Shown piece after piece: positions 1-43,808 of a stretch of DNA of 48,081 nt. The DNA lies in the NCBI GenBank assembly GCA_043782365.1, contig JAYWAO010000593.1, forward strand, positions 1 through 48,081, written 5' to 3'. The translations under genes and the position numbers were made by a program. This DNA comes from Deltaproteobacteria bacterium (lineage in GTDB: Bacteria > Myxococcota > Myxococcia > Myxococcales > 40CM-4-68-19). The number at the start of each line of letters is the position of its first letter. Position 1 is the stretch's first letter. The notes beneath the pieces were generated by a model that did no database searches, was not told the origin of the DNA, and saw nothing but the letters and a program-made list of their open reading frames with translations.

Positions 1-1121
1 TCGCGCAGCGGCGCGTAGTCCGCCTGCAGGGCCGCGAGCGAATCGGCCCAGTCGGAGAGGTGCGCCGAGGTGGCGGCTGCGGTCTGGAAGTTCTCCGACC
101 CGCCTCCGCGCGGCGGAGCGGCGGGCACCAGCGTGTGCGAGTTCACGCCCGGAGGCGGCGCCGAGCGGATCCAGGCGCGCATCTTCTGGCTGTCGGGGAG
201 CTTGCCGTCGAACCCGCAGACTTCCTTGGAGCAGTAGACCGAGGCGAACTTCCCGTAGTCCTGCTCGGCGAAGATCGACTCGGAGAGCTGGAACTGCTGC
301 AGGCGCGCGAGCGCGAGCACGTCCTTCGAGGACCAGTCCGGGATCTCGGCGGCGGTGACCGGGTAGGGCAGCTGCGCGTACTCACCGGGGAGCGCGAGCC
401 TGCTGCCCGAGGCGCGCAGCTCGGCGAGGTAGGCGTTGATGCCCTTCACGTAGGCGTCCACCTTGGTGGAGACGGCCTCGTTGCCGGCCTTGTGGAGGGC
501 GGCGTCGAGGGCGACCTCGAGGCGCTGGCCGTCGCGGGTGGTGAAGAGGGTGCGCAGCTGGAGGTCCTGCGAGAGGCCCAGCGGCCCGATCAGCTCGGCG
601 AGCTGGCCCTTGGCGACGCGGCGCAGGAAGTCCATCGGGAAGAGGCGGTCGTGCGCCTGCACGTAGCCCTGGACCGCGAAGCAGTCGATGGCCGCGGAGC
701 AGGCGATGTGCGGGATGTCGTAGCCGTCATAGGTGACGGTGACCGCGCCAGTGAGGCCCGGGATCTTGCCGGCCCCGAGCGTGACCGCCGAGGAGGGCGG
801 CGCGATGGTGACCGGGACGCTCACCGAGACCCCTTCGACCGAGGCGGTGATGGTAGCGGAGGTGGCGGTGCCGACCGGGCTGGGGGGCCGGTAGGTGACC
901 TGGAACCCGGAGCTGCCCGAGAGCGCTCCAGGGCCGGTCAAGGACCAGGCCGGGATGCCCTTTGTGTAGCTGACGGTGGCCTTCAGCACGACCGGACCGT
1001 TGGTGGTCACTGTCGTGGGGCTCACCGCGATCGACGGCGGGTTGTTGCTGACCGGTTTGGTGCCACAGCCTGCGAGCATCGCGCAGACAACGATTCCTAC
1101 AGCCGCTAGACTCGCGCGCAT
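1..1121 (-). CDS. Penicillin acylase/amidase (Ntn-hydrolase) family lipoprotein, N-terminal part; the 3' end lies beyond the window start
   Basis: Not in the ORF track because it is open at the window edge. My minus-strand translation from ATG 1121-1119 gives MRASLAAVGIVVCAMLAGCGTKP (lipobox LAGC), then ...VTYDGYDIPHIACSAAIDCFAVQGYVQAHDRLFPMDFLRRVAKGQLAELIG... This is the typical N-terminal signature region of the penicillin/cephalosporin acylase family. The frame stays open to base 1. Confidence 0.75.
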   Translation of the reverse strand, partial: MRASLAAVGIVVCAMLAGCGTKPVSNNPPSIAVSPTTVTTNGPVVLKATVSYTKGIPAWSLTGPGALSGSSGFQVTYRPPSPVGTATSATITASVEGVSVSVPVTIAPPSSAVTLGAGKIPGLTGAVTVTYDGYDIPHIACSAAIDCFAVQGYVQAHDRLFPMDFLRRVAKGQLAELIGPLGLSQDLQLRTLFTTRDGQRLEVALDAALHKAGNEAVSTKVDAYVKGINAYLAELRASGSRLALPGEYAQLPYPVTAAEIPDWSSKDVLALARLQQFQLSESIFAEQDYGKFASVYCSKEVCGFDGKLPDSQKMRAWIRSAPPPGVNSHTLVPAAPPRGGGSENFQTAAATSAHLSDWADSLAALQADYAPLR

Positions 1122-1256
1122 GGACCCTCCTGGTTGAAGACATGACAAACGATGGCCCGCCAGTTCGCGCGAGCGCCGGGCTGGTGTCAAATAAAAGCGG
1201 ATTGCGCAACGCGTTGACATCGAGAATTCGGTCGCGGGGTTGGATCGGGACCCAGG

Positions 1257-1273
1257 GGACAGCGGGGCTGTCC
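1257..1273 (-). terminator. Candidate hairpin about 47 nt downstream of napB (GGACAGC-GGG-GCTGTCC)
   Basis: Perfect 7-bp inverted repeat with a 3-nt loop in the napB/acylase intergenic region. No clear U-tract follows, so support is weak. Confidence 0.3.
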
Positions 1274-1319
1274 GTGCGGACTGCCCGGCGCGGCGTCGAT
1301 AAATGAAACTACCGAAGAG

Positions 1320-1820
1320 CTAGAAGCGGTTCTCCACCGGCGGCGGCACCTGCGCCTGCGGCACGTGGCAGCTGGTGCAGACCCAGCGCGCGCCGGCGAT
1401 CTCCTTGCCGACCACGCCGGGCGCGTTGCGCCAGTCGACGTGGTGGCTCGGCGGGATCGGCGTCGGGTCCTCGGGCTCCTTCATCTTCTCGACGTCGTGG
1501 CACTTGAGGCACTGGTTGCGCTGGAGGGTAATGGGCAGATATCCGGCGATGTCGTGTGGTATCCGCGGCGGCGAAGCGCCCCACGCGCGCGGGAGCCGGT
1601 CGTTGCCGCCGGGGCTCTCGTTGACGAACTTGAACGGCCGCGGCTCGGTCACCTCGAAGAGGCTGCCCTTGCTGAGGCCGAGGTCCCTGTCGCTGAGGCC
1701 GGGCACCGGCGGGGCGGCTGGCGCTGCTGGCTTCTCGGGTGGCTGCGCGAGCGGCGCGGGGCCTTGCGCGGTGGCGCACGCCGCGAGCAGGAGGAGCGCT
1801 GCCGGGAGTTGGGTTCGCAT
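1320..1820 (-). CDS. napB: Periplasmic nitrate reductase dihaem cytochrome c subunit NapB
   Basis: ORF 1320..2024 trimmed to ATG at 1820 (signal peptide MRTQLPAALLLLAACATAQG). Two CxxCH motifs (CLKCH, CTSCH). About 166 aa. Starts 8 nt after the napA stop. Confidence 0.85.
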   Translation of the reverse strand: MRTQLPAALLLLAACATAQGPAPLAQPPEKPAAPAAPPVPGLSDRDLGLSKGSLFEVTEPRPFKFVNESPGGNDRLPRAWGASPPRIPHDIAGYLPITLQRNQCLKCHDVEKMKEPEDPTPIPPSHHVDWRNAPGVVGKEIAGARWVCTSCHVPQAQVPPPVENRF

Positions 1821-1828
1821 GTCGTCCC

Positions 1829-4600
1829 TCAGGCCTTGGTGATCTTGACGGCGCACTTCTTGAAGTCGGTCTGCTTCGAGATCGGGCAGGTGGCGTCGAG
1901 CGTCACCTTGTTGATGAAGATCCCCTCGTCGAACCACGGCACGTAGACCATCCCGGCCGGCAGCTGGTAGCGGCCCTTGGTCTCCACCACCGCCTTGATC
2001 TTCCCGCGGCGCGACTCGATCCACGCGCTCTGCCCGCGCGCCAGCCCGCGCTGCTCGGCGTCGCGCGGGTGCATATAAAGGAGCGCCGCGGGCATCGCCT
2101 GGAACAGCTCGGGCACGCGCCGGGTCATGGTGCCGGAGTGCCAGTGCTCCAGCACGCGGCCCGTCGAGAGCCAGAGGTCGTACTGCGCGTCGGGCGACTC
2201 GGGCGGCGCCGCGTAGGGCCGGAAGAAGATCTTCGCCTTGCCCGCGAGCGAGACCAGCTTTTGGTCGGTGACGCCGCGCGCGTCGCCCGAGGGGAGCTCC
2301 TTCATCGCCGCGCCGTAGAAGTCGATCTTCGCCCCCTTCTTCACATAGGGGTCATAGTCACCATTGAACCGCCACGGCGTCTCCTTGCCGTCGACCACGG
2401 GCCAGCGCAGACCGCGCACGTCGTCGTCGAAGTAGCGGTCGAACGGCGCCAGATCGTGCCCGTGCCCGCGGCCGAAGCCCGCGTACTCCTCGAAGAGCGC
2501 CTTCTCGGGGAACCAGTCGCCGCCCAGCAGCGCCGCGGTCTGGTTCGGGTGGCCCTTGGCGACCGGATCGGGCCACTTGAACTTGCGGGAGGCCTCGTTG
2601 TCGAAGAGCACCTGATACAGCGTTGTATCGGGCCCATATCCCAGCTCCGCGGCCTCGGAGAGCACGCTGGGGAGCTTGCCGGCCTCGACCCCGGCCTCGG
2701 GATTGGCGGCGAGCCCGGGCAGCTTCTGCTCGCCCCACACCTCGGAGACCTTGAGGCGCTTGGAGAGCTCGAGGATCTGCCAGACGTCGCTGCGCGCTTC
2801 GCCCGGCGGCGCCACTTGCTGCCGCCACAGCTGCGTGCGCCGCTCCGAGTTCCCGTAGGCGCCCCACTTCTCGAAGATCATCGCCGAGGGCAGGATCAGA
2901 TCGGCCACCTTGGCGCTGGTCCCGGGATAGCAGTCGGAGACCACCAGGAACGCCCCCTTCTGCCGCGCCGCCGCGATCCAATGGTTGGCATTGGCCGTCG
3001 ATTGGAACGGATTGGTCACCTGCACCCAGACCCACTTGACGCGGCCGTCCTCCAGGTCGCGCATCATCTGCGTCAGGTGGCTGCCCGGCTTGGGGTTGAG
3101 CGTGCGCGGGGGCAGCTTCCAGAGGTGCTCGGCCTTCTCGCGGTGCTTGGGATTGGTCACCACCATATCGGCTGGCAGCCGGTGCGAGAAGGTGCCCACC
3201 TCGCGCGCGGTGCCGCACGCCGAGGGCTGGCCCGTCAGCGAGAAGGCGCCGCTGCCCGGGACCGCCTGCTTGCCGGTCAATAGGTGGGCCATATACGCCT
3301 GCTCGTTCACCCAGGTGCCGCGCGTGTGCTGGTTGAAGCCCATCGTCCAATAGGAGACCACCTTGCGCTTCGGATCGGCGTACTGGTCGGCGAGCAGCAC
3401 CAGCTTGGCCTTGAAGCGCTCGAGCGGCTCGTCGGGGTCGCCCTTGGCGAGCTGCGCGACATAATCGAGCGTATAAGGCTCCACCGCCTTCTTGAACTCC
3501 TCGAATGTAATCAGCCAATGCTTGTCCGGCGTGGCGGCGTTCTTCTGCTCCACCTCCCGCGGCGCGGCGGCAGCGAGCCCCTGCCCGGCGGCCTCATCGG
3601 CGCTGAGCGTGACCTTCCGCTCGCGCAGCCGGGTGTCGAGCTCGGCCGGGAGCGCGGCCTTGTCGTCGCCGCGCATGCCATAGCCGATGTCGGTGGGCCC
3701 GGCGGCGAAGACGCAGTGCTCCTCGACGAACTTCGTGTTGACCGCCTTGCGGGCGATGATCTCCCGGGCGAGGTAGTTCCAGAGCGCAAGATCGGTGTTG
3801 GGCTTGAAGATGAGCTCGACGTCGGCGAGCGCCGAGGTGGGCGTCCCAAACGTCGTCAGGTTGATGATGCGGGCGTTCGGGTCCTTCTGCCGCTTGTCGG
3901 CGATGCGGGCCCAGAGCATCGGGTGCATCTCGGCCATGTTCGCGCCCCAGGGCACGATGGTGTCGGTGCGCTCGATGTCGTCGTAGCAGCCCGACGGCTC
4001 GTCGATCCCGAAGGTCTGCATGAACGCCGTCACCGCCGAGGCCATGCAGTGGCGCGCGTTCGGGTCGATGTTGTTGCTGCGCAGGCCCGCCTTGACGAGC
4101 TTCACCGCCGCATAGCCCTCCTGCACCGTGTATTGCCCCGAGCCCATCACCGCGAGGCCGCTCGGCCCCAACTCCGCGTGGACCCGCTTGAGCTGCGCGG
4201 CCATCTCGTCGAGCGCCCGCTCCCAGCTCACCGGGAAGAAGTCGCCGTCTTTATCGAACTGCCCGTTCTTCATCCGCAAGAGCGGCTGCGTCAATCGATC
4301 GGCGCCATAGAGGATGCGCGCGTTGGCATATCCCTTCACGCAGAGCAGGCCGCGGTTCACCGGCGCGTCGGGGTCGCCCTTGACGGCCACCACCTTGTCG
4401 CCCTTGGTGCCGACGAGCAGGCCGCAGCCCACCCCGCAGAAGCGGCACGGGGTGCGGTCCCAGGAGATCGACTTGTCGAGGTCGGTTGGGGTGGCGAGCG
4501 AGGGCGCGCCGTCCGCGGCCTCCGAGCGGCGCGAGATGCCCACCGCAGCGGCGGTGGCGGCGGCGATGGCGTTCCTGATCAGCTCACGGCGGGTGGTCAT
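1829..4600 (-). CDS. napA: Periplasmic nitrate reductase catalytic subunit NapA (Mo-bisMGD, 4Fe-4S)
   Basis: ORF 1829..4690 trimmed to ATG 4600. Twin-arginine signal [21 protein letters not shown]-terminal cluster motif CRFCGVGCG, and NapA-type sequence throughout. At 923 aa it is the long NapA form. Confidence 0.95.
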
Positions 4601-4878
4601 CGGGAGGCCCTCCCCAGCTGGACGGGCGCCGGCAGCTCGCCGTCGCCCGCTTCGAAGTAGTGGTGGACGAGCGCTGCGTGCAGCACCCACGGGAGCGCCT
4701 GGATGCGGCGCAGGCCCTCTTCCTGCTCCTCGGTGGTGTCGGTCTCTTGGGTGACCACCAGCCGGTGCTGCTCCGGGTCGAGGTGGTGCACCTGCACGCC
4801 CGGCAAGGCCGAGAGCGCCGCCAGACCCTCAGGAAAGTCCCGCTGCGAGAGCCCCACCAAGATGCCGGAGATGTTCAT
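4597..4878 (-). CDS. napD: NapD chaperone for NapA maturation/Tat export
   Basis: Last 93 codons of ORF 4597..6162 ([19 protein letters not shown]...). Small NapD-like protein. ATGA overlaps with both the nnrS stop (4875-4878) and the napA start (4597-4600). Confidence 0.8.
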
Positions 4879-6137
4879 GGCGCGGTACCTTGGCGCTTCT
4901 GCGGCAGGAGCGCCAGCGTCGCCCAGGCGAGCGTCGCCGCGAGGAACCCGGCGGCCGCCAGCGCGAACCAGAGCTGCGACGGCGCCACGTCGAGGACCGC
5001 CCGCGCGCCGAGCGCCAGGAAGAGCAGCGCGGCGACCGCGACATGTTGCCACGGGCTGGTGGAGAGCAGCGAAGGCCGCCCGCCGTGCGAGAGCGAGATG
5101 TGCGCGCCCACCGAGAGCACGAGCAGCGCGAAGCAGCCGATGAACGTGACGTGCAGGCCGAGCAGGCGCAGGCCCGGCGCGGCGGCGACGATGAGGCTCC
5201 CGGCGGGCAGGAGCCACGCCGCCACCCAGACGAGCCAGCGGTGCAGCCCGGGCATCGAGGGCCGCCGCCAGAGCTGCATGGTGCCCGCCACCACCCAGAG
5301 CGCCAAGAGGCCGCGCAGCGCGAAGCCCAGCCGGAGATCGAAGAGCGGTTCGATGAAGGCGGCGGCGGTCCAGAGCGCGCAGCCGACGGCGTGGCGCAGG
5401 AGCGCGCTGCGGTAGGGGGCTCCGGCGGCGACGCGCGACGGATCGGTCCCGCGGGTGATGGCGGGCACCAGGAACGCGCCCGTGCCGAGCACCATCCCGG
5501 TGAAGACTCCCTGCAGGACCAGCGTGCGGCCCACCTCGAAGAGCAAGCCCAGCCGCGCGGGCAGCCACGGCCCGGCGGCGATGAAGAGCGAGCCCAGGAC
5601 GCCCCAGGCGAGGCCCATCGCCACCCAGAGGAAGGCGGGCGGGAGCTGGTTCTTGGCCCGGGCGGTGCGCGCGCGCTGCAAGGCGAAGCGGGCGAGCGTG
5701 CCGAGGGTGACGAGCCAGCAGACCTGCGCGAGGAGCCAGGCGCCCGCCAGCGCGCAGACCGCCAGCAGCGCCGGGCCAGCGAGGCAGACGACCAGCTCCC
5801 AGGTCGCGGGCGGCGCGGTGCCCGTGCGGCGGGGCAAGAAGGTGAAGAGGAACCCGAGCGCGAAGCAGATGAGAAACCCCTGCACCTGCACCAGGGAGTG
5901 GTAGGCGGGCAGGTACGCCGCTCCCACGCCGATCCCCACCAGCAGCCAGGGCAGCACGCCGGCCCACGCGAGGACGAGGCCGAGAGGGAAGAAGAGCTTC
6001 CAGGGGTCCTTCTTCCAGGCGGCGGCGACGGCGAGCTCGGGAGAGGCGGCGAGCAGCTTCAGCGGCGGCTCGGGCTTGCGCAGCGGCGCCGGGGCGGGCA
6101 CGGGCGGGTGAGGGACGACGGGCAAGGTCGGGTCCAT
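4875..6137 (-). CDS. nnrS: NnrS-family haem/copper membrane protein (NO-stress associated)
   Basis: ORF 4875..6326 trimmed to MDPTLPVV (ATG 6137). About 420 aa and polytopic (about 12 hydrophobic helices), with NnrS-like layout and conserved His positions. First gene of the nap operon. Confidence 0.75.
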   Translation of the reverse strand: MDPTLPVVPHPPVPAPAPLRKPEPPLKLLAASPELAVAAAWKKDPWKLFFPLGLVLAWAGVLPWLLVGIGVGAAYLPAYHSLVQVQGFLICFALGFLFTFLPRRTGTAPPATWELVVCLAGPALLAVCALAGAWLLAQVCWLVTLGTLARFALQRARTARAKNQLPPAFLWVAMGLAWGVLGSLFIAAGPWLPARLGLLFEVGRTLVLQGVFTGMVLGTGAFLVPAITRGTDPSRVAAGAPYRSALLRHAVGCALWTAAAFIEPLFDLRLGFALRGLLALWVVAGTMQLWRRPSMPGLHRWLVWVAAWLLPAGSLIVAAAPGLRLLGLHVTFIGCFALLVLSVGAHISLSHGGRPSLLSTSPWQHVAVAALLFLALGARAVLDVAPSQLWFALAAAGFLAATLAWATLALLPQKRQGTAP

Positions 6138-40751: not shown

Positions 40752-41648
40752 CTAGCCAGGCGGGTGCAGCGCGGTGAAAGCCTGCAGCTGCCCGGCGATC
40801 GCGCGCACGAGCGCGTCCGGCACGCCCTCCTGGCAGGTCGAACGCGGGCGCAGGTCGAGCGGGTCGTTGGCGTAGTCCACCACCGAGAACCCGCCGTCAG
40901 GGAGCAGCGCGATCTCGGTGGAGAAGAGCCGCAGGCCCGAGACCCGCGCGATGATCCGGGCGAGGTCGCGCAGGCCGACGAGACCGAGCGCGAGCTCCTC
41001 GGCGGCGGTGACGGGCGCGTAGACGTGGGTCGCGATGTCCCACCAGCACGGGTAGATCTCGCCGTCGCAGTAGATCACGCGGAACCACGCCGCGCGGCCG
41101 CCGGGCGTCGCCGGCACCAGGTACGTCTGCAGGAGGAACTCGTCCTCCGGGAAGCGGGCGCGCGCCGCGAGCACCTCGGCGAGCGTGCTGGCCTGGGTCA
41201 CCACGCCCTCGCCGCCGCCGCCGTGCGCGGGCTTGATGGTGAAGCAGGGCCCGAGCGGCGAGAGGTCGAGGCTGGCGAGCGCGGGCTCGGCTGCGTGCGG
41301 CGGGAGCACGATGGTGTATGGCGTGCGGAGCTGCGAAAAGAGGGCCCGGTGCATCGCCGACTTGTCGGCGGCGCGGACCGCGTGCTCGTGGGGGTTGAGC
41401 CGCGGCACGCCCTGCTCCTTGGCCCAGGCGTCGAGCGGGAGGAAGCGCGGCTCGGCCTCGCTGGCGCGGTCGAGGAGGGCGCCAAAATGGAGGCTGCCCG
41501 AGGCGAGCTCCGCGAGCGTGGCGCCCAGGTTCGCCGGCGTGACCTGGAGGAGCGTCTGGCCGTGCGCCCGCAGGGCTGCCTCGAGGAGCGCGACGAAGGC
41601 GGCGTCGTACTCCCAGTTCCACGCGAGGCAGAGGTCGTAGGAGGTCAC
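40752..41648 (-). CDS. ATP-grasp fold protein
   Basis: C-terminal 298 codons of ORF 40752..42569 from GTG 41648 (VTSYDLCLAWNWEYD). ATP-grasp-like blocks CFTIKPAHGGGGEGVV, LLQTYLVP, FRVIYCDGEIY, FSTEIALLPDGGFSVVDYAND. Confidence 0.65.
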   Translation of the reverse strand: MTSYDLCLAWNWEYDAAFVALLEAALRAHGQTLLQVTPANLGATLAELASGSLHFGALLDRASEAEPRFLPLDAWAKEQGVPRLNPHEHAVRAADKSAMHRALFSQLRTPYTIVLPPHAAEPALASLDLSPLGPCFTIKPAHGGGGEGVVTQASTLAEVLAARARFPEDEFLLQTYLVPATPGGRAAWFRVIYCDGEIYPCWWDIATHVYAPVTAAEELALGLVGLRDLARIIARVSGLRLFSTEIALLPDGGFSVVDYANDPLDLRPRSTCQEGVPDALVRAIAGQLQAFTALHPPG

Positions 41649-42073
41649 GGCCGCCGCGCGGTCTTGGCCGGCGAAGGCCTGGCGGGCCAATAGGTGGTCG
41701 CCCGGCGCGTCCCCTTCGACTTCACCTGCCCGGCCTCGAGCAGCCGCTTCACCGGCAGCGACAGATCCTTGGTGGGCGCGCCGAGCACCTTGGCCAGCTG
41801 CTCGATGCGCAGGCCCGGCTGGGCGGCGATCGCAGCGCGGAGGCTCCCGGCGGCGCGCTGCAGCTCTGCGGGCTGGCGGCGCGCGCTCCTGCCGCCGTTG
41901 GAGCCGTCCGCTCCGCCCTCTGCCGAAGCCGGGAGCGCGCCCGCCACCGCCCGCGTCACGCTCTCGAGGATGGCGGTCTTCACCACCGCGACCAGCGCGG
42001 CGGCGAAGGCTGCGGTGAGCCGGTCGATCTCGTGCTGGAACTTCTGCTGGAAGGCGGGTGCTGCCTGGCTCAT
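41645..42073 (-). CDS. Small protein with a C-terminal winged-helix-like DNA-binding motif
   Basis: ORF 41645..42463 trimmed to MSQAAPAFQQKF (RBS AGGAG). C-terminus is GLRIEQLAKVLGAPTKDLSLPVKRLLEAGQVKSKGTRRATTYW. Its TGA overlaps the GTG of the ATP-grasp gene. Confidence 0.55.
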   Translation of the reverse strand: MSQAAPAFQQKFQHEIDRLTAAFAAALVAVVKTAILESVTRAVAGALPASAEGGADGSNGGRSARRQPAELQRAAGSLRAAIAAQPGLRIEQLAKVLGAPTKDLSLPVKRLLEAGQVKSKGTRRATTYWPARPSPAKTARRP

Positions 42074-42338
42074 GTGGGGCGGCTCCTGGGAAGCTGGCAG
42101 ATAGCACCCGCTCCCGATGACCGCACCTGAAACCGCCCGCCGCGCCTGGGTGCCAGTGTGGACGTGGCAGTTGCGGTCCGGGACCAAGGTGGTCTCCAAC
42201 TCCGTCCAGCCGGGTGCGACGCCTGGGCCCCTCGCCAATCCCGGCTCCCAGAGCGGGACCGGGCGCGAAGAGGCTTGTCTGGCAGAGTGAAGAGACACGG
42301 TCAAACAGCCAATCAGGTAGAGCGGTGGGCATCCTTGT

Positions 42339-42416
42339 GGTGGCGTATTCCGAAGCGGTCGAGGAGCGGGACCGTGACTCCCGTGCAAGTCGGTGCGAGT
42401 CCGGCACGCCACCCTC
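42339..42416 (+). tRNA. tRNA-His-like element (anticodon GTG, encoded G-1:C73), a probable pseudo-tRNA or tRNA-like RNA
   Basis: Hand-folded cloverleaf. G-1 plus acceptor GTGGCGT/ACGCCAC. D arm TCCG/AGGA with a GG loop. Anticodon stem CGGGA/TCCCG, loop CCGTGAC. 5-nt variable loop. T arm GTCGG/CCGGC, loop TGCGAGT. Deviations from invariants: A8, C33, G55, and a 3' CTC instead of CCA. Confidence 0.55.
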
Positions 42417-42465
42417 TCGTCTCGAGAACGGGCCGGTGGCGCAGGGACGACCCGGGTGGTCAAGC

Positions 42466-42588
42466 GGACCGCGTCGCGCTGTCGCCGTCGCGCGCAACCT
42501 GGTCGAGCAGCCGGGCGGGACCCTCACCGTCGAGAGCCGGCCGGGCTCGGGGACTGCCTTTCGCGTCACGCTGCCGCCCTGTGCGTGA
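42466..42588 (+). pseudogene. 3' remnant of a histidine kinase (HATPase_c G2-box/C-terminus)
   Basis: The tail of ORF 42214..42588, ...AVAVARNLVEQPGGTLTVESRPGSGTAFRVTLPPCA*, matches the end of HATPase_c domains (…IV..HGG.I.VES..G.GT.F...LP). There is no upstream kinase body. Confidence 0.5.
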
Positions 42589-42620
42589 GCGAGGCCGGCG
42601 GCGCCCAGGCAGTCGACCCG

Positions 42621-43808
42621 CTACGGAAACGCGCCGCTGTCGAAGAAGTCTTCGAGGTCGTTCGCCGGCGCGACCCGCGCGCTCACCGGCAGGCCGAGGA
42701 CCTCCTGCAGCGACTTCAAGAGCGAGCTGTGCGTGTACCTGAACGGGCTCACGTAGCCAGGCTTCACGTGCGGGCCCGCCACCAGGAAAGGCGTGCTGGT
42801 GTTGAGCGCGGGCTCGTCCCAGACGACGAAGAGCGCGCCGCCGTGGGCCTGCACGAAGGCGAGGATGCCGGGCACGTTGTCGCGCAGGAAGGCGTCGCCG
42901 CCCGCGATGCACGCGCCCGTGGTCAGGCCGCTGGTGCAGCCGTTGGGGCAGCCCGAGGCGCCGTGCATGTCGTTGCAGAGGTTCGGCGTGATGAAAGTGT
43001 AGGCGGCGACGTCGCCGGCGTTGAGGTCGGCCTGGAAGCCGGCGCTGGTGAAGGCGCGGTGGTGCGCCGCGCACTCCGCGTTGGTGGCCGAGGGCGGGTT
43101 GCCCGCGACGTCCTGGAAGAAGACGAACGGGTCGTGCTTGGCGGCGTAGTAGCCGCTGCTGGTGACGGGGCAGGCGCCGGTCGCGCTGCCGAGCCCTTCT
43201 TGATACGAGCGCCAGGTCTTGCCGTTCGCGGCCGCCTTCAAGTGGGTGACGAGGTGGTCGGTGTCGCTGGTGCTGTTGCCCTGGGATGGGTCGCCGTCGC
43301 CCGTGAAGGTCTTGTCGGCGAAGGCGTTGGTGCCCGCCTCCATCCAGAGGTAGTGGGGCTCGCTGGGCACCAGCGGGCCGAGGTTGTCGCCGTAGTTCGA
43401 GGCGCTGCCGTACTGCGCCTTCAGCGTCCCGTTGATGTAGGGCGCGCTGGGGCTGCCGTAGACACCCGCGCCGAGCACATTGGTGCCGTCCTGGTTCTCC
43501 ATCGCGATGACGAAGACGTAGGGGACGTGGCCTGCATCCGTCCCCGCGTCGCTGCCGGCGTCCGCTCCTGCGTCGGCCCCTCCGTCCGTCCCGGCGTCGT
43601 GGCCTGCGTCGCTGCCCGCGTCAGCGCCCGCGTCGGGGGCGGCCGCGCAGTGACCCGAGGTGCACGCCTGGCCGGGCGCGCAGTCGGCGGCAGAGAGGCA
43701 GGCAGGCTGCGTCGCCACCGGGCCGCTGCAGGCGGCGGCGACGAGGGCCGCGAGCGCAGCAGGGCACCAAGGAGGTCCAAGGCGCGGCGGGCGGGTGGAG
43801 AGAGCCAT
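42621..43808 (-). CDS. Phosphoesterase-family (acid phosphatase/phospholipase C-like, PF04185-type) lipoprotein
   Basis: ORF 42621..43982 trimmed to MALSTRPPRLGPPWCPAALAALVAAAC (lipobox). One Cys-rich module, a (DAGx)n linker, then ...VFVIAMENQ..., PNLCNDMH, FVVWDE. Confidence 0.75.
   Translation of the reverse strand: MALSTRPPRLGPPWCPAALAALVAAACSGPVATQPACLSAADCAPGQACTSGHCAAAPDAGADAGSDAGHDAGTDGGADAGADAGSDAGTDAGHVPYVFVIAMENQDGTNVLGAGVYGSPSAPYINGTLKAQYGSASNYGDNLGPLVPSEPHYLWMEAGTNAFADKTFTGDGDPSQGNSTSDTDHLVTHLKAAANGKTWRSYQEGLGSATGACPVTSSGYYAAKHDPFVFFQDVAGNPPSATNAECAAHHRAFTSAGFQADLNAGDVAAYTFITPNLCNDMHGASGCPNGCTSGLTTGACIAGGDAFLRDNVPGILAFVQAHGGALFVVWDEPALNTSTPFLVAGPHVKPGYVSPFRYTHSSLLKSLQEVLGLPVSARVAPANDLEDFFDSGAFP
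43530..43634 (-). repeat. Imperfect 12-bp in-frame repeats encoding a (D-A-G-x)n linker
   Basis: Translation is PDAGADAGSDAGHDAGTDGGADAGADAGSDAGTDAG. Confidence 0.7.

Follow-up and report, generated by a model that had tools for sequence, protein, structure and literature searches.

A tRNA-His-derived gene with an altered core, probably the relic of a tRNA/HNH cassette in Myxococcota

The tRNA-His-Type Gene and Its Surroundings

The stretch of DNA considered here (the window, 48,081 nucleotides of a Myxococcota genome) carries at 42339-42416 on the plus strand a tRNA-His(GUG)-type gene, which begins with G-1, forms a cloverleaf ending with C73 at 42413, has a CTC tail and is characterized by A8, C32-C33 and G55. 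Direct reading of the sequence places G-1 at 42339 and gives an acceptor stem, GTGGCGT/ACGCCAC, in which 7/7 pairs are Watson-Crick and C73 faces G-1. Positions 8-9 are AT, the D arm is TCCG / AAGCGGTCG / AGGA, the anticodon arm is CGGGA / CCGTGAC / TCCCG with GUG at positions 34-36 of the 7-nt loop, the variable loop is TGCAA (5 nt) and the T arm is GTCGG / TGCGAGT / CCGGC, followed by the tail CTC. The 7-bp acceptor, D, anticodon and T arms lie at the canonical spacing of a tRNA. These letters are exactly those quoted in the preliminary description, which had claimed a tRNA-His-like cloverleaf, but the pairing of two arms has to be amended: the D stem is not 4/4 paired but consists of three pairs and a G13·A22 mismatch, and the T stem includes one U50·G64 wobble which was not listed.

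An encoded G-1:C73 pair is the hallmark of bacterial tRNA-His, and both this pair and the GUG anticodon are encoded in the genome here, which bears out the tRNA-His origin proposed for the element. As for the nearly universal nucleotides of the tertiary structure, A14, G18-G19, G53, T54, C56, A58 and C61 (in our own numbering) are present, but U8, A21, U33 and U55 are replaced by A, G, C and G, respectively, and in this respect the element falls outside the ordinary tRNA. G21 and A48, the latter facing A15 in the same numbering, are departures in addition to those described before. Escherichia coli hisR, whose annotated tRNA-His sequence was confirmed, shares with the element G-1 with C73, the acceptor start GUGGC, the GUG anticodon, A37, a 5-nt variable loop, G53-C61, T54, C56 and A58. 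However, hisR has U8, a D arm GCUC-AGUUGGUA-GAGC, an anticodon loop UUGUGAU, a T loop UUCGAAU and an encoded CCA, whereas the window element has A8, a D arm UCCG-AAGCGGUCG-AGGA, the loop CCGUGAC, a T loop UGCGAGU and the tail CUC. The element is very probably not the housekeeping copy of the tRNA-His gene.

Upstream of this gene, at 42173-42245 (+), lies a second tRNA-like element, truncated at its 5' end, with a T arm CCGGG/TGCGACG/CCTGG, a 3' acceptor strand GCCCCTC, G and CCA, and the two are separated by a spacer at 42246-42338 (+) which evolves at a roughly neutral rate. Downstream, the 3' trailer and inter-tRNA spacer at 42414-42429 (+) contain a hairpin, TCTCG-TCT-CGAGA, at 42415-42427; in a related lineage (L113) this hairpin has two C-to-T changes, each of which turns a G-C pair into G·U. 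Then follow, at 42430-42444 (+), the first 15 nt of a downstream tRNA gene, the remainder of which is deleted; they read GGGCCGGTGGCGCAG against GGGCCGGTAGCTCAG in another lineage (L091), where the gene is a tRNA-Phe(GAA) scoring 67.8 bits with RF00005. A 21-nt internal fragment of an HNH endonuclease gene occupies 42445-42465 (+) and is a 100% match to L113 positions 4212-4232, which are enclosed by the HNH open reading frame of that lineage (4001-4612). Finally, a C-terminal remnant of a histidine kinase gene, the end of a HATPase_c domain and then a stop codon, is found at 42475-42588 (+). The kinase gene remnant which had been reported close to the tRNA-like element is real, since it matches positions 75-109 of 111 of Pfam PF02518 with E = 1.7e-5 and 25.7 bits (cut-off 26.4), and no kinase sequence is present upstream of it.

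The notion of a rearrangement site is likewise upheld by at least three deletion junctions within about 300 nt. At the first, near 42177, a 62-amino-acid open reading frame, its terminator-like hairpin and the first 5 nt of the upstream tRNA-like element are gone; the acceptor stem of this element (GAGGGGC/GCCCCTC, 7 bp) is intact in L113 and L091 and is lost here, with the break of homology near 42177. At the second, 42444/42445, the 15 nt of the downstream tRNA are fused to the 21-nt exact HNH fragment, and at the third this fragment is fused to the last ~35 codons of the histidine kinase. In L113 the tRNA-Phe is reduced to GGGGCGGGCCCACCA, and since this reduction is independent of that in the window, the second tRNA was lost twice and the His gene was kept three times. 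The survival of the His gene through three destructive deletions nearby could be due to chance or to selection. A scan of the gap (42000-42650) for promoters and terminators found neither a promoter-like site nor a terminator, and no promoter was identified at the locus in any of the lineages. A protein-coding open reading frame at 42214-42588 was also considered and rejected: in L091 the frame runs through the canonical tRNA-Phe, and in our reading the substitutions are without codon periodicity.

Recognition by tRNA Search Programs

It had been proposed to check the element with ARAGORN and the Rfam models, and for the element itself this check was negative both at the default setting and at the gathering score. 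ARAGORN at default makes no call at 42339-42416 in the window and recovers the site only from -ps88 downward; at -ps85 it gives 47 calls in the window, and the background in shuffled sequences is ~6 calls at -ps90 and ~120 at -ps80. Rfam at the gathering score gives no match for the element in the window, the best match of the tRNA clan being the tRNA-Sec model RF01852 with 26.4 bits against a gathering score of 47 (42339-42413, lax filters, 106 nt), and this match rests on the D arm and on the 8-bp acceptor helix formed through G-1:C73. The window element is therefore not a tRNA by the curated thresholds and standard finders (CL00001 / RF00005). ARAGORN does call the orthologues of the element in L091 and L113, yet these also remain below the Rfam gathering score. 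The upstream tRNA-like element gives a weak tRNA-clan match of 17.7 bits in L091 and an ARAGORN call in no lineage. As to the tRNA-Sec model, the likeness lies in the 8-bp acceptor helix and a D region of the tRNA-Ser/tRNA-Sec type, but the anticodon is GUG instead of UCA and 18 model positions are replaced by 2 nt. Consequently, a tRNA-Sec or allo-tRNA was rejected because of the wrong anticodon and the 5-nt loop in place of a long variable arm.

A scan for the strict geometry gives 1 site in the window and 0.0275 sites per dinucleotide shuffle (11/400 shuffles), an uncommon outcome for one window, and from the shuffle rate a few chance sites are estimated per 10-Mb genome of like composition. 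In addition, the minimum-free-energy fold of the element is not a cloverleaf and has a z value of -1.3. Taken alone, the sequence does no more than suggest a tRNA gene; that the element is real is settled by its orthologues and by the covariation within the family. A covariance model of the six-sequence family described below finds no further copy within the window.

Orthologues and Conservation in Related Lineages

In 10 independent assemblies of the organism the element does not differ by a single letter, and a sequencing error is thereby excluded as the source of G55; the gap in these assemblies is unchanged save one difference outside the element. Relatives were reached via the adjacent ATP-grasp gene (40752-41648, minus strand). 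The ATP-grasp protein of L091 has 81% amino-acid identity to that of the window, and a third lineage (L113-L116), which was located via the HNH protein, has an ATP-grasp protein 89% identical and the same synteny. The gene order ACAD, ice-binding gene, ATP-grasp, wHTH and then the tRNA locus is kept in both L091 and L113, and at the syntenic spot ARAGORN at default calls a tRNA-His(gtg) in each. Synteny is no longer kept around more distant ATP-grasp homologues (P0008, P0009, P0021 and P0002/L092), and no tRNA accompanies them; a contig scan anchored on the neighbouring phosphoesterase gave 80 loci with identity of at most 69% and no synteny.

Over the full 78 nt the element is identical to that of L091 at 74/78 positions, or at 71/75 (95%) from G-1 to C73, and to that of L113 at 73/75 (97%). 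For comparison, identity at fourfold-degenerate sites of the flanking genes is 74-75% with L091 and 89-90% with L113; for the spacer between the two tRNA-like elements it is 64-65% and 90%, for the upstream element 88-89% and 96%, and for the 16-nt trailer 100% (16/16) and 88%, respectively. When the neutral difference rate versus L091 is taken as 0.25, the probability of at most 4 differences in 75 nt is 8e-6. Recent transfer of the whole block is ruled out as the cause of this conservation, because the two conserved elements flank a spacer which evolves at the neutral rate. Five sites vary among the three lineages (positions 50, 55, 60, 64 and 69), and all three stem substitutions preserve pairing, the pair 50:64 being U·G in the window, U-A in L113 and C-G in L091. 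The suggested search for conservation and compensatory change in relatives was thus answered in the affirmative. To judge from sequence and gene order, the element is the orthologue of a syntenic tRNA-His(GUG) gene in at least two other Myxococcota lineages, and the substitution pattern indicates that purifying selection acted on the His gene through most of the history of the clade.

A Wider tRNA-His Family with an Unusual D Arm

Metagenome contigs were scanned for the pattern of the D arm and the GTG anticodon at correct spacing, with the stems left free. The scan gave 15 loci, 11 of which are coincidences in coding sequences. The other 4/15 (L103, L106, L107 and its duplicate, L110) are tRNA-His genes; all of them have G-1:C73, A8 and a D arm identical to that of the window element, and each belongs to a densely packed array which counts 11-16 tRNA genes. 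These array genes have U33 and U55, and CCA is encoded in 2/3 distinct sequences; L103 (45.0 bits) and L106 (31.2 bits) both exceed the RF00005 gathering score of 29. In the alignment of the six-sequence family 99.2% of the stem cells pair and 9/21 pairs change on both sides, values of pairing and covariation which are reached by 0/500 shuffles, and 3' partners slid out of register pair at only 40-51%. The G-1:C73 pair is an invariant G-C in 6/6 members. The markers of the lineage are A8, a D arm UCCG-AAGCGGUCG-AGGA which resembles that of tRNA-Ser, G21 and A48. Judged by these shared features, the element probably belongs to a divergent tRNA-His lineage otherwise found in dense tRNA arrays of the phage or mobile-element type. 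Pattern scans of viral contigs found no tRNA-His of this type, and the His region has no match in annotated phage and plasmid records; in the L107 array, only the other tRNAs match phage and plasmid tRNA clusters.

Three Altered Positions of Different Origin

The statement that U8, U33 and U55 are replaced is correct to the letter, but the three do not form a single class of mutated universal positions, because they have three different origins. A8 is invariant across the array-associated tRNA-His lineage, and, as A8 and the odd D arm recur across a family with 99.2% pairing, they are lineage traits and not lesions. The window, L091 and L113, the three lineages of the clade, do not differ in A8, C32-C33 or the CTC tail; C33 and the CTC tail, being common to the three, are conserved features and not fresh decay. 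Since C33 was conserved under purifying selection it is compatible with the role of the RNA, and the loss of canonical nucleotides alone is no proof of lost function. G55 is private to the window genome among the three lineages, and the in-silico change G55T alone restores the default ARAGORN call.

Consequently, the idea of a decaying tRNA-His paralogue fails for most of the history of the clade in view of the clade-long purifying selection, and it holds at most for the recent past of this genome. The His gene has 1 window-specific change in 75 nt against ~3.8 expected at the neutral rate (P ~0.1, an estimate), so ongoing constraint in this genome stays compatible with the data. The upstream element has 3 changes in 68 nt in the window lineage, which is the neutral rate, versus 0 in L113.

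It was also observed that a change from U55 to G arose twice in the window lineage, in the upstream tRNA-like element (42216) and in the His gene (42395). The estimated probability that the single change of the His gene matches one of the three changes of the upstream element in position and base is ~1%. Either GC-biased mutation, both sites having the context GGTTCGA, or a shared selective cause may explain this double U55G, which is seen in one genome.

The tRNA/HNH Cassette and Its Relation to tRNA Arrays

In L091 a canonical tRNA-Phe(GAA) lies 16 nt 3' of the His gene and is followed by an HNH endonuclease gene and then by a hybrid histidine kinase gene. The order of the cassette in the relatives is tRNA-like element, tRNA-His, second tRNA and HNH endonuclease, the last lying 47-105 nt downstream of the final tRNA or tRNA remnant in L091, L113 and L117; an adjacent endonuclease of the homing type is therefore a feature of the relatives, and the window keeps only its 21-nt fragment. 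In L117, a locus of the same type, an HNH protein 79% identical is preceded by tRNA-Leu(gag) and tRNA-Leu(cag). Furthermore, HNH homologues 57-58% identical sit in the middle of arrays of 12-18 tRNAs on contigs of 160-195 kb, which consist of small open reading frames on the same strand and have a phage-like look. Long tRNA arrays move horizontally, often beside a co-regulated homing endonuclease (PMC8421152), and they undergo frequent deletions and rearrangements (PMC4758250). Because the HNH homologues lie inside such arrays on phage-like contigs, we infer that what remains in the chromosome at this locus derives from a tRNA-array/HNH module acquired by horizontal transfer. The earlier suggestion of an old integration site was not borne out, as neither an att-like repeat in the window nor an integrase among the called genes of the locus was found; the proposed search for a matching direct repeat gave none within the 48-kb window at up to 3 mismatches. 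Horizontal acquisition of a tRNA/HNH cassette is a better description of the origin than an integration of the integrase type.

The resemblance to long tRNA arrays (L-arrays; PMC8421152, PMC4758250, PMC5966550) extends to several features. tRNA-His genes of this type, with A8 and the identical D arm, are members of arrays with 11-16 tRNAs; in the relatives of the window the tRNAs are directly followed by an HNH endonuclease gene, as in Anabaena and phage arrays; deletions remove genes, and the set of tRNAs at a single locus differs, being His-Phe in L091 and Leu-Leu in L117; and divergent, low-scoring tRNAs and pseudogenes are typical of arrays. However, an array unit is defined as at least 20 tRNA genes at a density of at least 2 per kb (PMC4758250) or as a long co-oriented array (PMC8421152), and the locus with its one to three chromosomal tRNA-like genes is far below this size: the window has 1 intact tRNA-like gene and fragments, and the relatives have at most 2 called tRNAs in addition to the upstream tRNA-like element. 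Also unlike the arrays, the clade adds C33 and is without an encoded CCA, and this genome adds G55. No array of this type in Myxococcota is reported in the tRNA-array literature cited. Phage tRNAs with altered anticodon loops (PMC10264068) are similar in belonging to a mobile-element lineage and in having a non-consensus loop conserved under selection, but the gene here is chromosomal with no phage genes around it, and an effect of C33 on nucleases is hypothetical in this case. The element would thus descend from the supernumerary tRNAs of mobile tRNA arrays and, as we infer, may work like them.

Interpretation and Rival Explanations

The reading we consider probable is that the element is a genuine tRNA-His-derived gene, a relic of a horizontally acquired tRNA/HNH cassette, which most probably is just starting to decay in this genome. 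In the relatives the RNA would be transcribed together with its neighbours, RNase P would leave G-1 in place because it pairs with C73, and the CTC trailer would be trimmed and CCA added. HisRS could then charge the RNA through G-1:C73 and the GUG anticodon, and the charged RNA would serve as a supernumerary His isodecoder whose C32-C33 loop may change its sensitivity to anticodon-loop nucleases, an idea taken from phage tRNAs (PMC10264068). In the window genome, deletions have removed the upstream small open reading frame, the 5' end of the upstream tRNA-like element, nearly all of the next tRNA and of the HNH gene and most of the kinase gene, and the His gene is the sole intact survivor of this deletion-eroded cassette, newly with U55G. 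A recent relaxation of constraint is preferred here because the cassette partners are gone, the upstream element is without its acceptor stem and changes at the neutral rate, and the new change in the His gene hits U55.

A different, doubtful though not negligible reading is that the gene is still a working non-canonical tRNA-His, a spare isodecoder from a mobile array which is a poor substrate for tRNA-targeting nucleases, owing to its unusual anticodon loop (C32-C33) and T loop, and which comes into use when housekeeping tRNA-His runs short or translation is under stress. G-1:C73 and GUG are the identity elements by which HisRS recognizes bacterial tRNA-His, and both are intact; moreover, C33 was retained across the clade under strong purifying selection, every stem of the window copy is intact and the gene outlived three flanking deletions. 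U55, however, is almost universally needed for the lock between the T loop and the D loop, and it is lost in this genome only; the partner genes of the cassette and probably also the native upstream region are deleted, the sister element upstream drifts at the neutral rate (3 changes/68 nt) and the scan of 42000-42650 detected no promoter-like site. We know of no nuclease whose specificity C33 would defeat for tRNA-His. There is nevertheless precedent in Anabaena, where 23/26 array tRNAs are aminoacylated and array tRNAs are induced under translational stress (PMC8421152), and phage and array tRNAs have been proposed to evade anticodon nucleases via changes in the anticodon loop (PMC10264068); tRNA arrays are also considered putative anti-defence systems (PMC12803027). 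Rather unlikely is a further reading in which the clade would have domesticated an array tRNA-His as a chromosomal non-canonical RNA (A8, C33 and no encoded CCA), kept by selection either as a nuclease-resistant spare decoder or in a non-decoding role, with the parallel U55G as an adaptive retuning of the T loop. That the RNA is a tRNA-like molecule kept for a role outside decoding, for instance as a regulator, as a primer or as a decoy which diverts a tRNA-binding toxin or enzyme, and that the parallel U55G marks its shift off the ribosome, is improbable. The coincidence of U55G in both elements (estimated at ~1%), the conserved departures A8, C33 and lack of CCA and the conserved spacer hairpin speak for it, but no partner protein is conserved here (the HNH and small open reading frame are gone), the lost acceptor stem of the upstream element favours decay over coordinated change, GC-biased mutation could plausibly produce T-to-G changes, the genome having 72% G+C, and G55 is found in one genome only.

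Two further readings would remove the element from the tRNA cassette. If the cloverleaf had arisen by chance, in non-coding DNA rich in G+C or in decayed coding sequence of the kinase, this would explain why ARAGORN at default and Rfam at the gathering score both miss the element, why relaxed ARAGORN gives many comparable calls in the window and in shuffles, why the minimum-free-energy z value is only -1.3 and why a few strict-geometry matches per 10-Mb genome are expected from the shuffle rate. Nevertheless, this reading is refuted by the orthologous tRNA-His genes which ARAGORN calls in L091 and L113 and by the family-wide covariation; further points against it are that L091 has a bona fide tRNA-Phe next to the gene on its 3' side, that the element is conserved far beyond the neutral expectation and that the kinase remnant begins only at ~42475. 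Its probability is close to nil. Since integration often targets tRNA genes and the region around the element is rearranged, an integrase-mediated insertion site, with the tRNA gene as the attB of a prophage or genomic island, may also be thought of, but it is very improbable: a second copy of the 3' end of either tRNA-like element is absent from the window even when 3 mismatches are allowed, the called locus genes of this organism and its relatives include no integrase, and the neighbouring tRNA retains its 5' end, which is the wrong end, as integrase scars leave tRNA 3' ends.

Significance

A single substitution, U55G, suffices to conceal from both ARAGORN and Rfam a tRNA gene which is structurally perfect and, in the preferred reading, was functional until recently. 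Furthermore, mutated universal positions can be traits of a lineage and not damage, as with A8 for the tRNA-His lineage and C33 for the clade. The locus also documents a tRNA-His lineage which travels in arrays and has a non-standard core (A8, G21, A48 and a tRNA-Ser-like D arm), and a small tRNA-plus-HNH cassette in Myxococcota with cargo differing between relatives (His-Phe and Leu-Leu). If the C33 form is charged and used, it would be a natural test of the extent to which a tRNA can do without the universal core and of whether array tRNAs are built to escape tRNA-targeting toxins.

Sequence remains around the tRNA-His gene

In the trailer of the tRNA-His(GUG)-type gene (window 42339-42416, + strand), a small hairpin, TCTCG-TCT-CGAGA (42415-42427), is present with the same sequence in the related Myxococcota lineage L091, and in a second relative with the same syntenic locus, L113, it carries two C-to-T changes, each of which converts a G-C pair into a G·U pair. 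This hairpin may be a processing signal. It is followed by a tRNA/HNH fusion (42430-42465), in which the 5' 15 nt of the downstream tRNA gene are joined directly to 21 nt that derive from the interior of the HNH endonuclease ORF and match L113 4212-4232 exactly.

The divergent wHTH/ATP-grasp operon is preceded by two short sites, CTGGCAGATAGCACC (window 42094-42108) and the palindromic TGCCAGTGTGGACGTGGCA (42151-42169); both are discernible in L091 and may be regarded as candidate operator sites for the wHTH protein. The two relatives possess a further segment (L091 3531-3503, - strand; L113 3558-3588, + strand) with a conserved 62-aa ORF, a promoter-like TTGACA-17-TATGGT ahead of it and a terminator-like hairpin of 13 bp between this ORF and a second tRNA-like element, like2, and all three features have been lost from the window by deletion.

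The second tRNA-like element and the U55 changes

like2 is a conserved element situated 5' of the tRNA-His gene (window 42173-42245, + strand; L113 3649-3721; L091 3098-3167, - strand). In the relatives its T arm is canonical, its acceptor stem is 7 bp long and its 3' terminus reads GCCA; the D and anticodon region is irregular, and the window copy is truncated at the 5' end. It is not called by ARAGORN in any lineage and scores 17.7 bits against the tRNA-Sec model of Rfam. In the window lineage U55 is changed to G in both tRNA-like elements (42216 and 42395), giving the T loops TGCGACG and TGCGAGT, the counterparts of which in the relatives are TTCGACT and TTCGAGT/C. The chance of this change coinciding in both is estimated at ~1%.

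HNH-associated tRNA genes in other contigs

HNH homologues (57-58% identity to the myxobacterial HNH) are found in contigs of 160-195 kb that are phage-like in appearance (L119/L120, region 1-5500; L121, region 240-5600), together with 12-18 tRNA genes, small ORFs in between and NT5C and PDDEXK_5 genes close by. In a relative, L117, the end of the small ORF, the hairpin and the HNH gene (4001-4615, 79% identity) represent the same locus type, and tRNA-Leu(gag) and tRNA-Leu(cag) (3769-3954) occupy the place of like2, tRNA-His and tRNA-Phe in the other lineages. Both tRNA-Leu genes are called by ARAGORN and are absent from the Rfam gathering-score results for this locus; the fast filters of the Rfam search appear to overlook some G+C-rich tRNAs. 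Since the tRNA content upstream of the HNH gene differs between L117 and the others, the tRNA cargo at this position is exchangeable.
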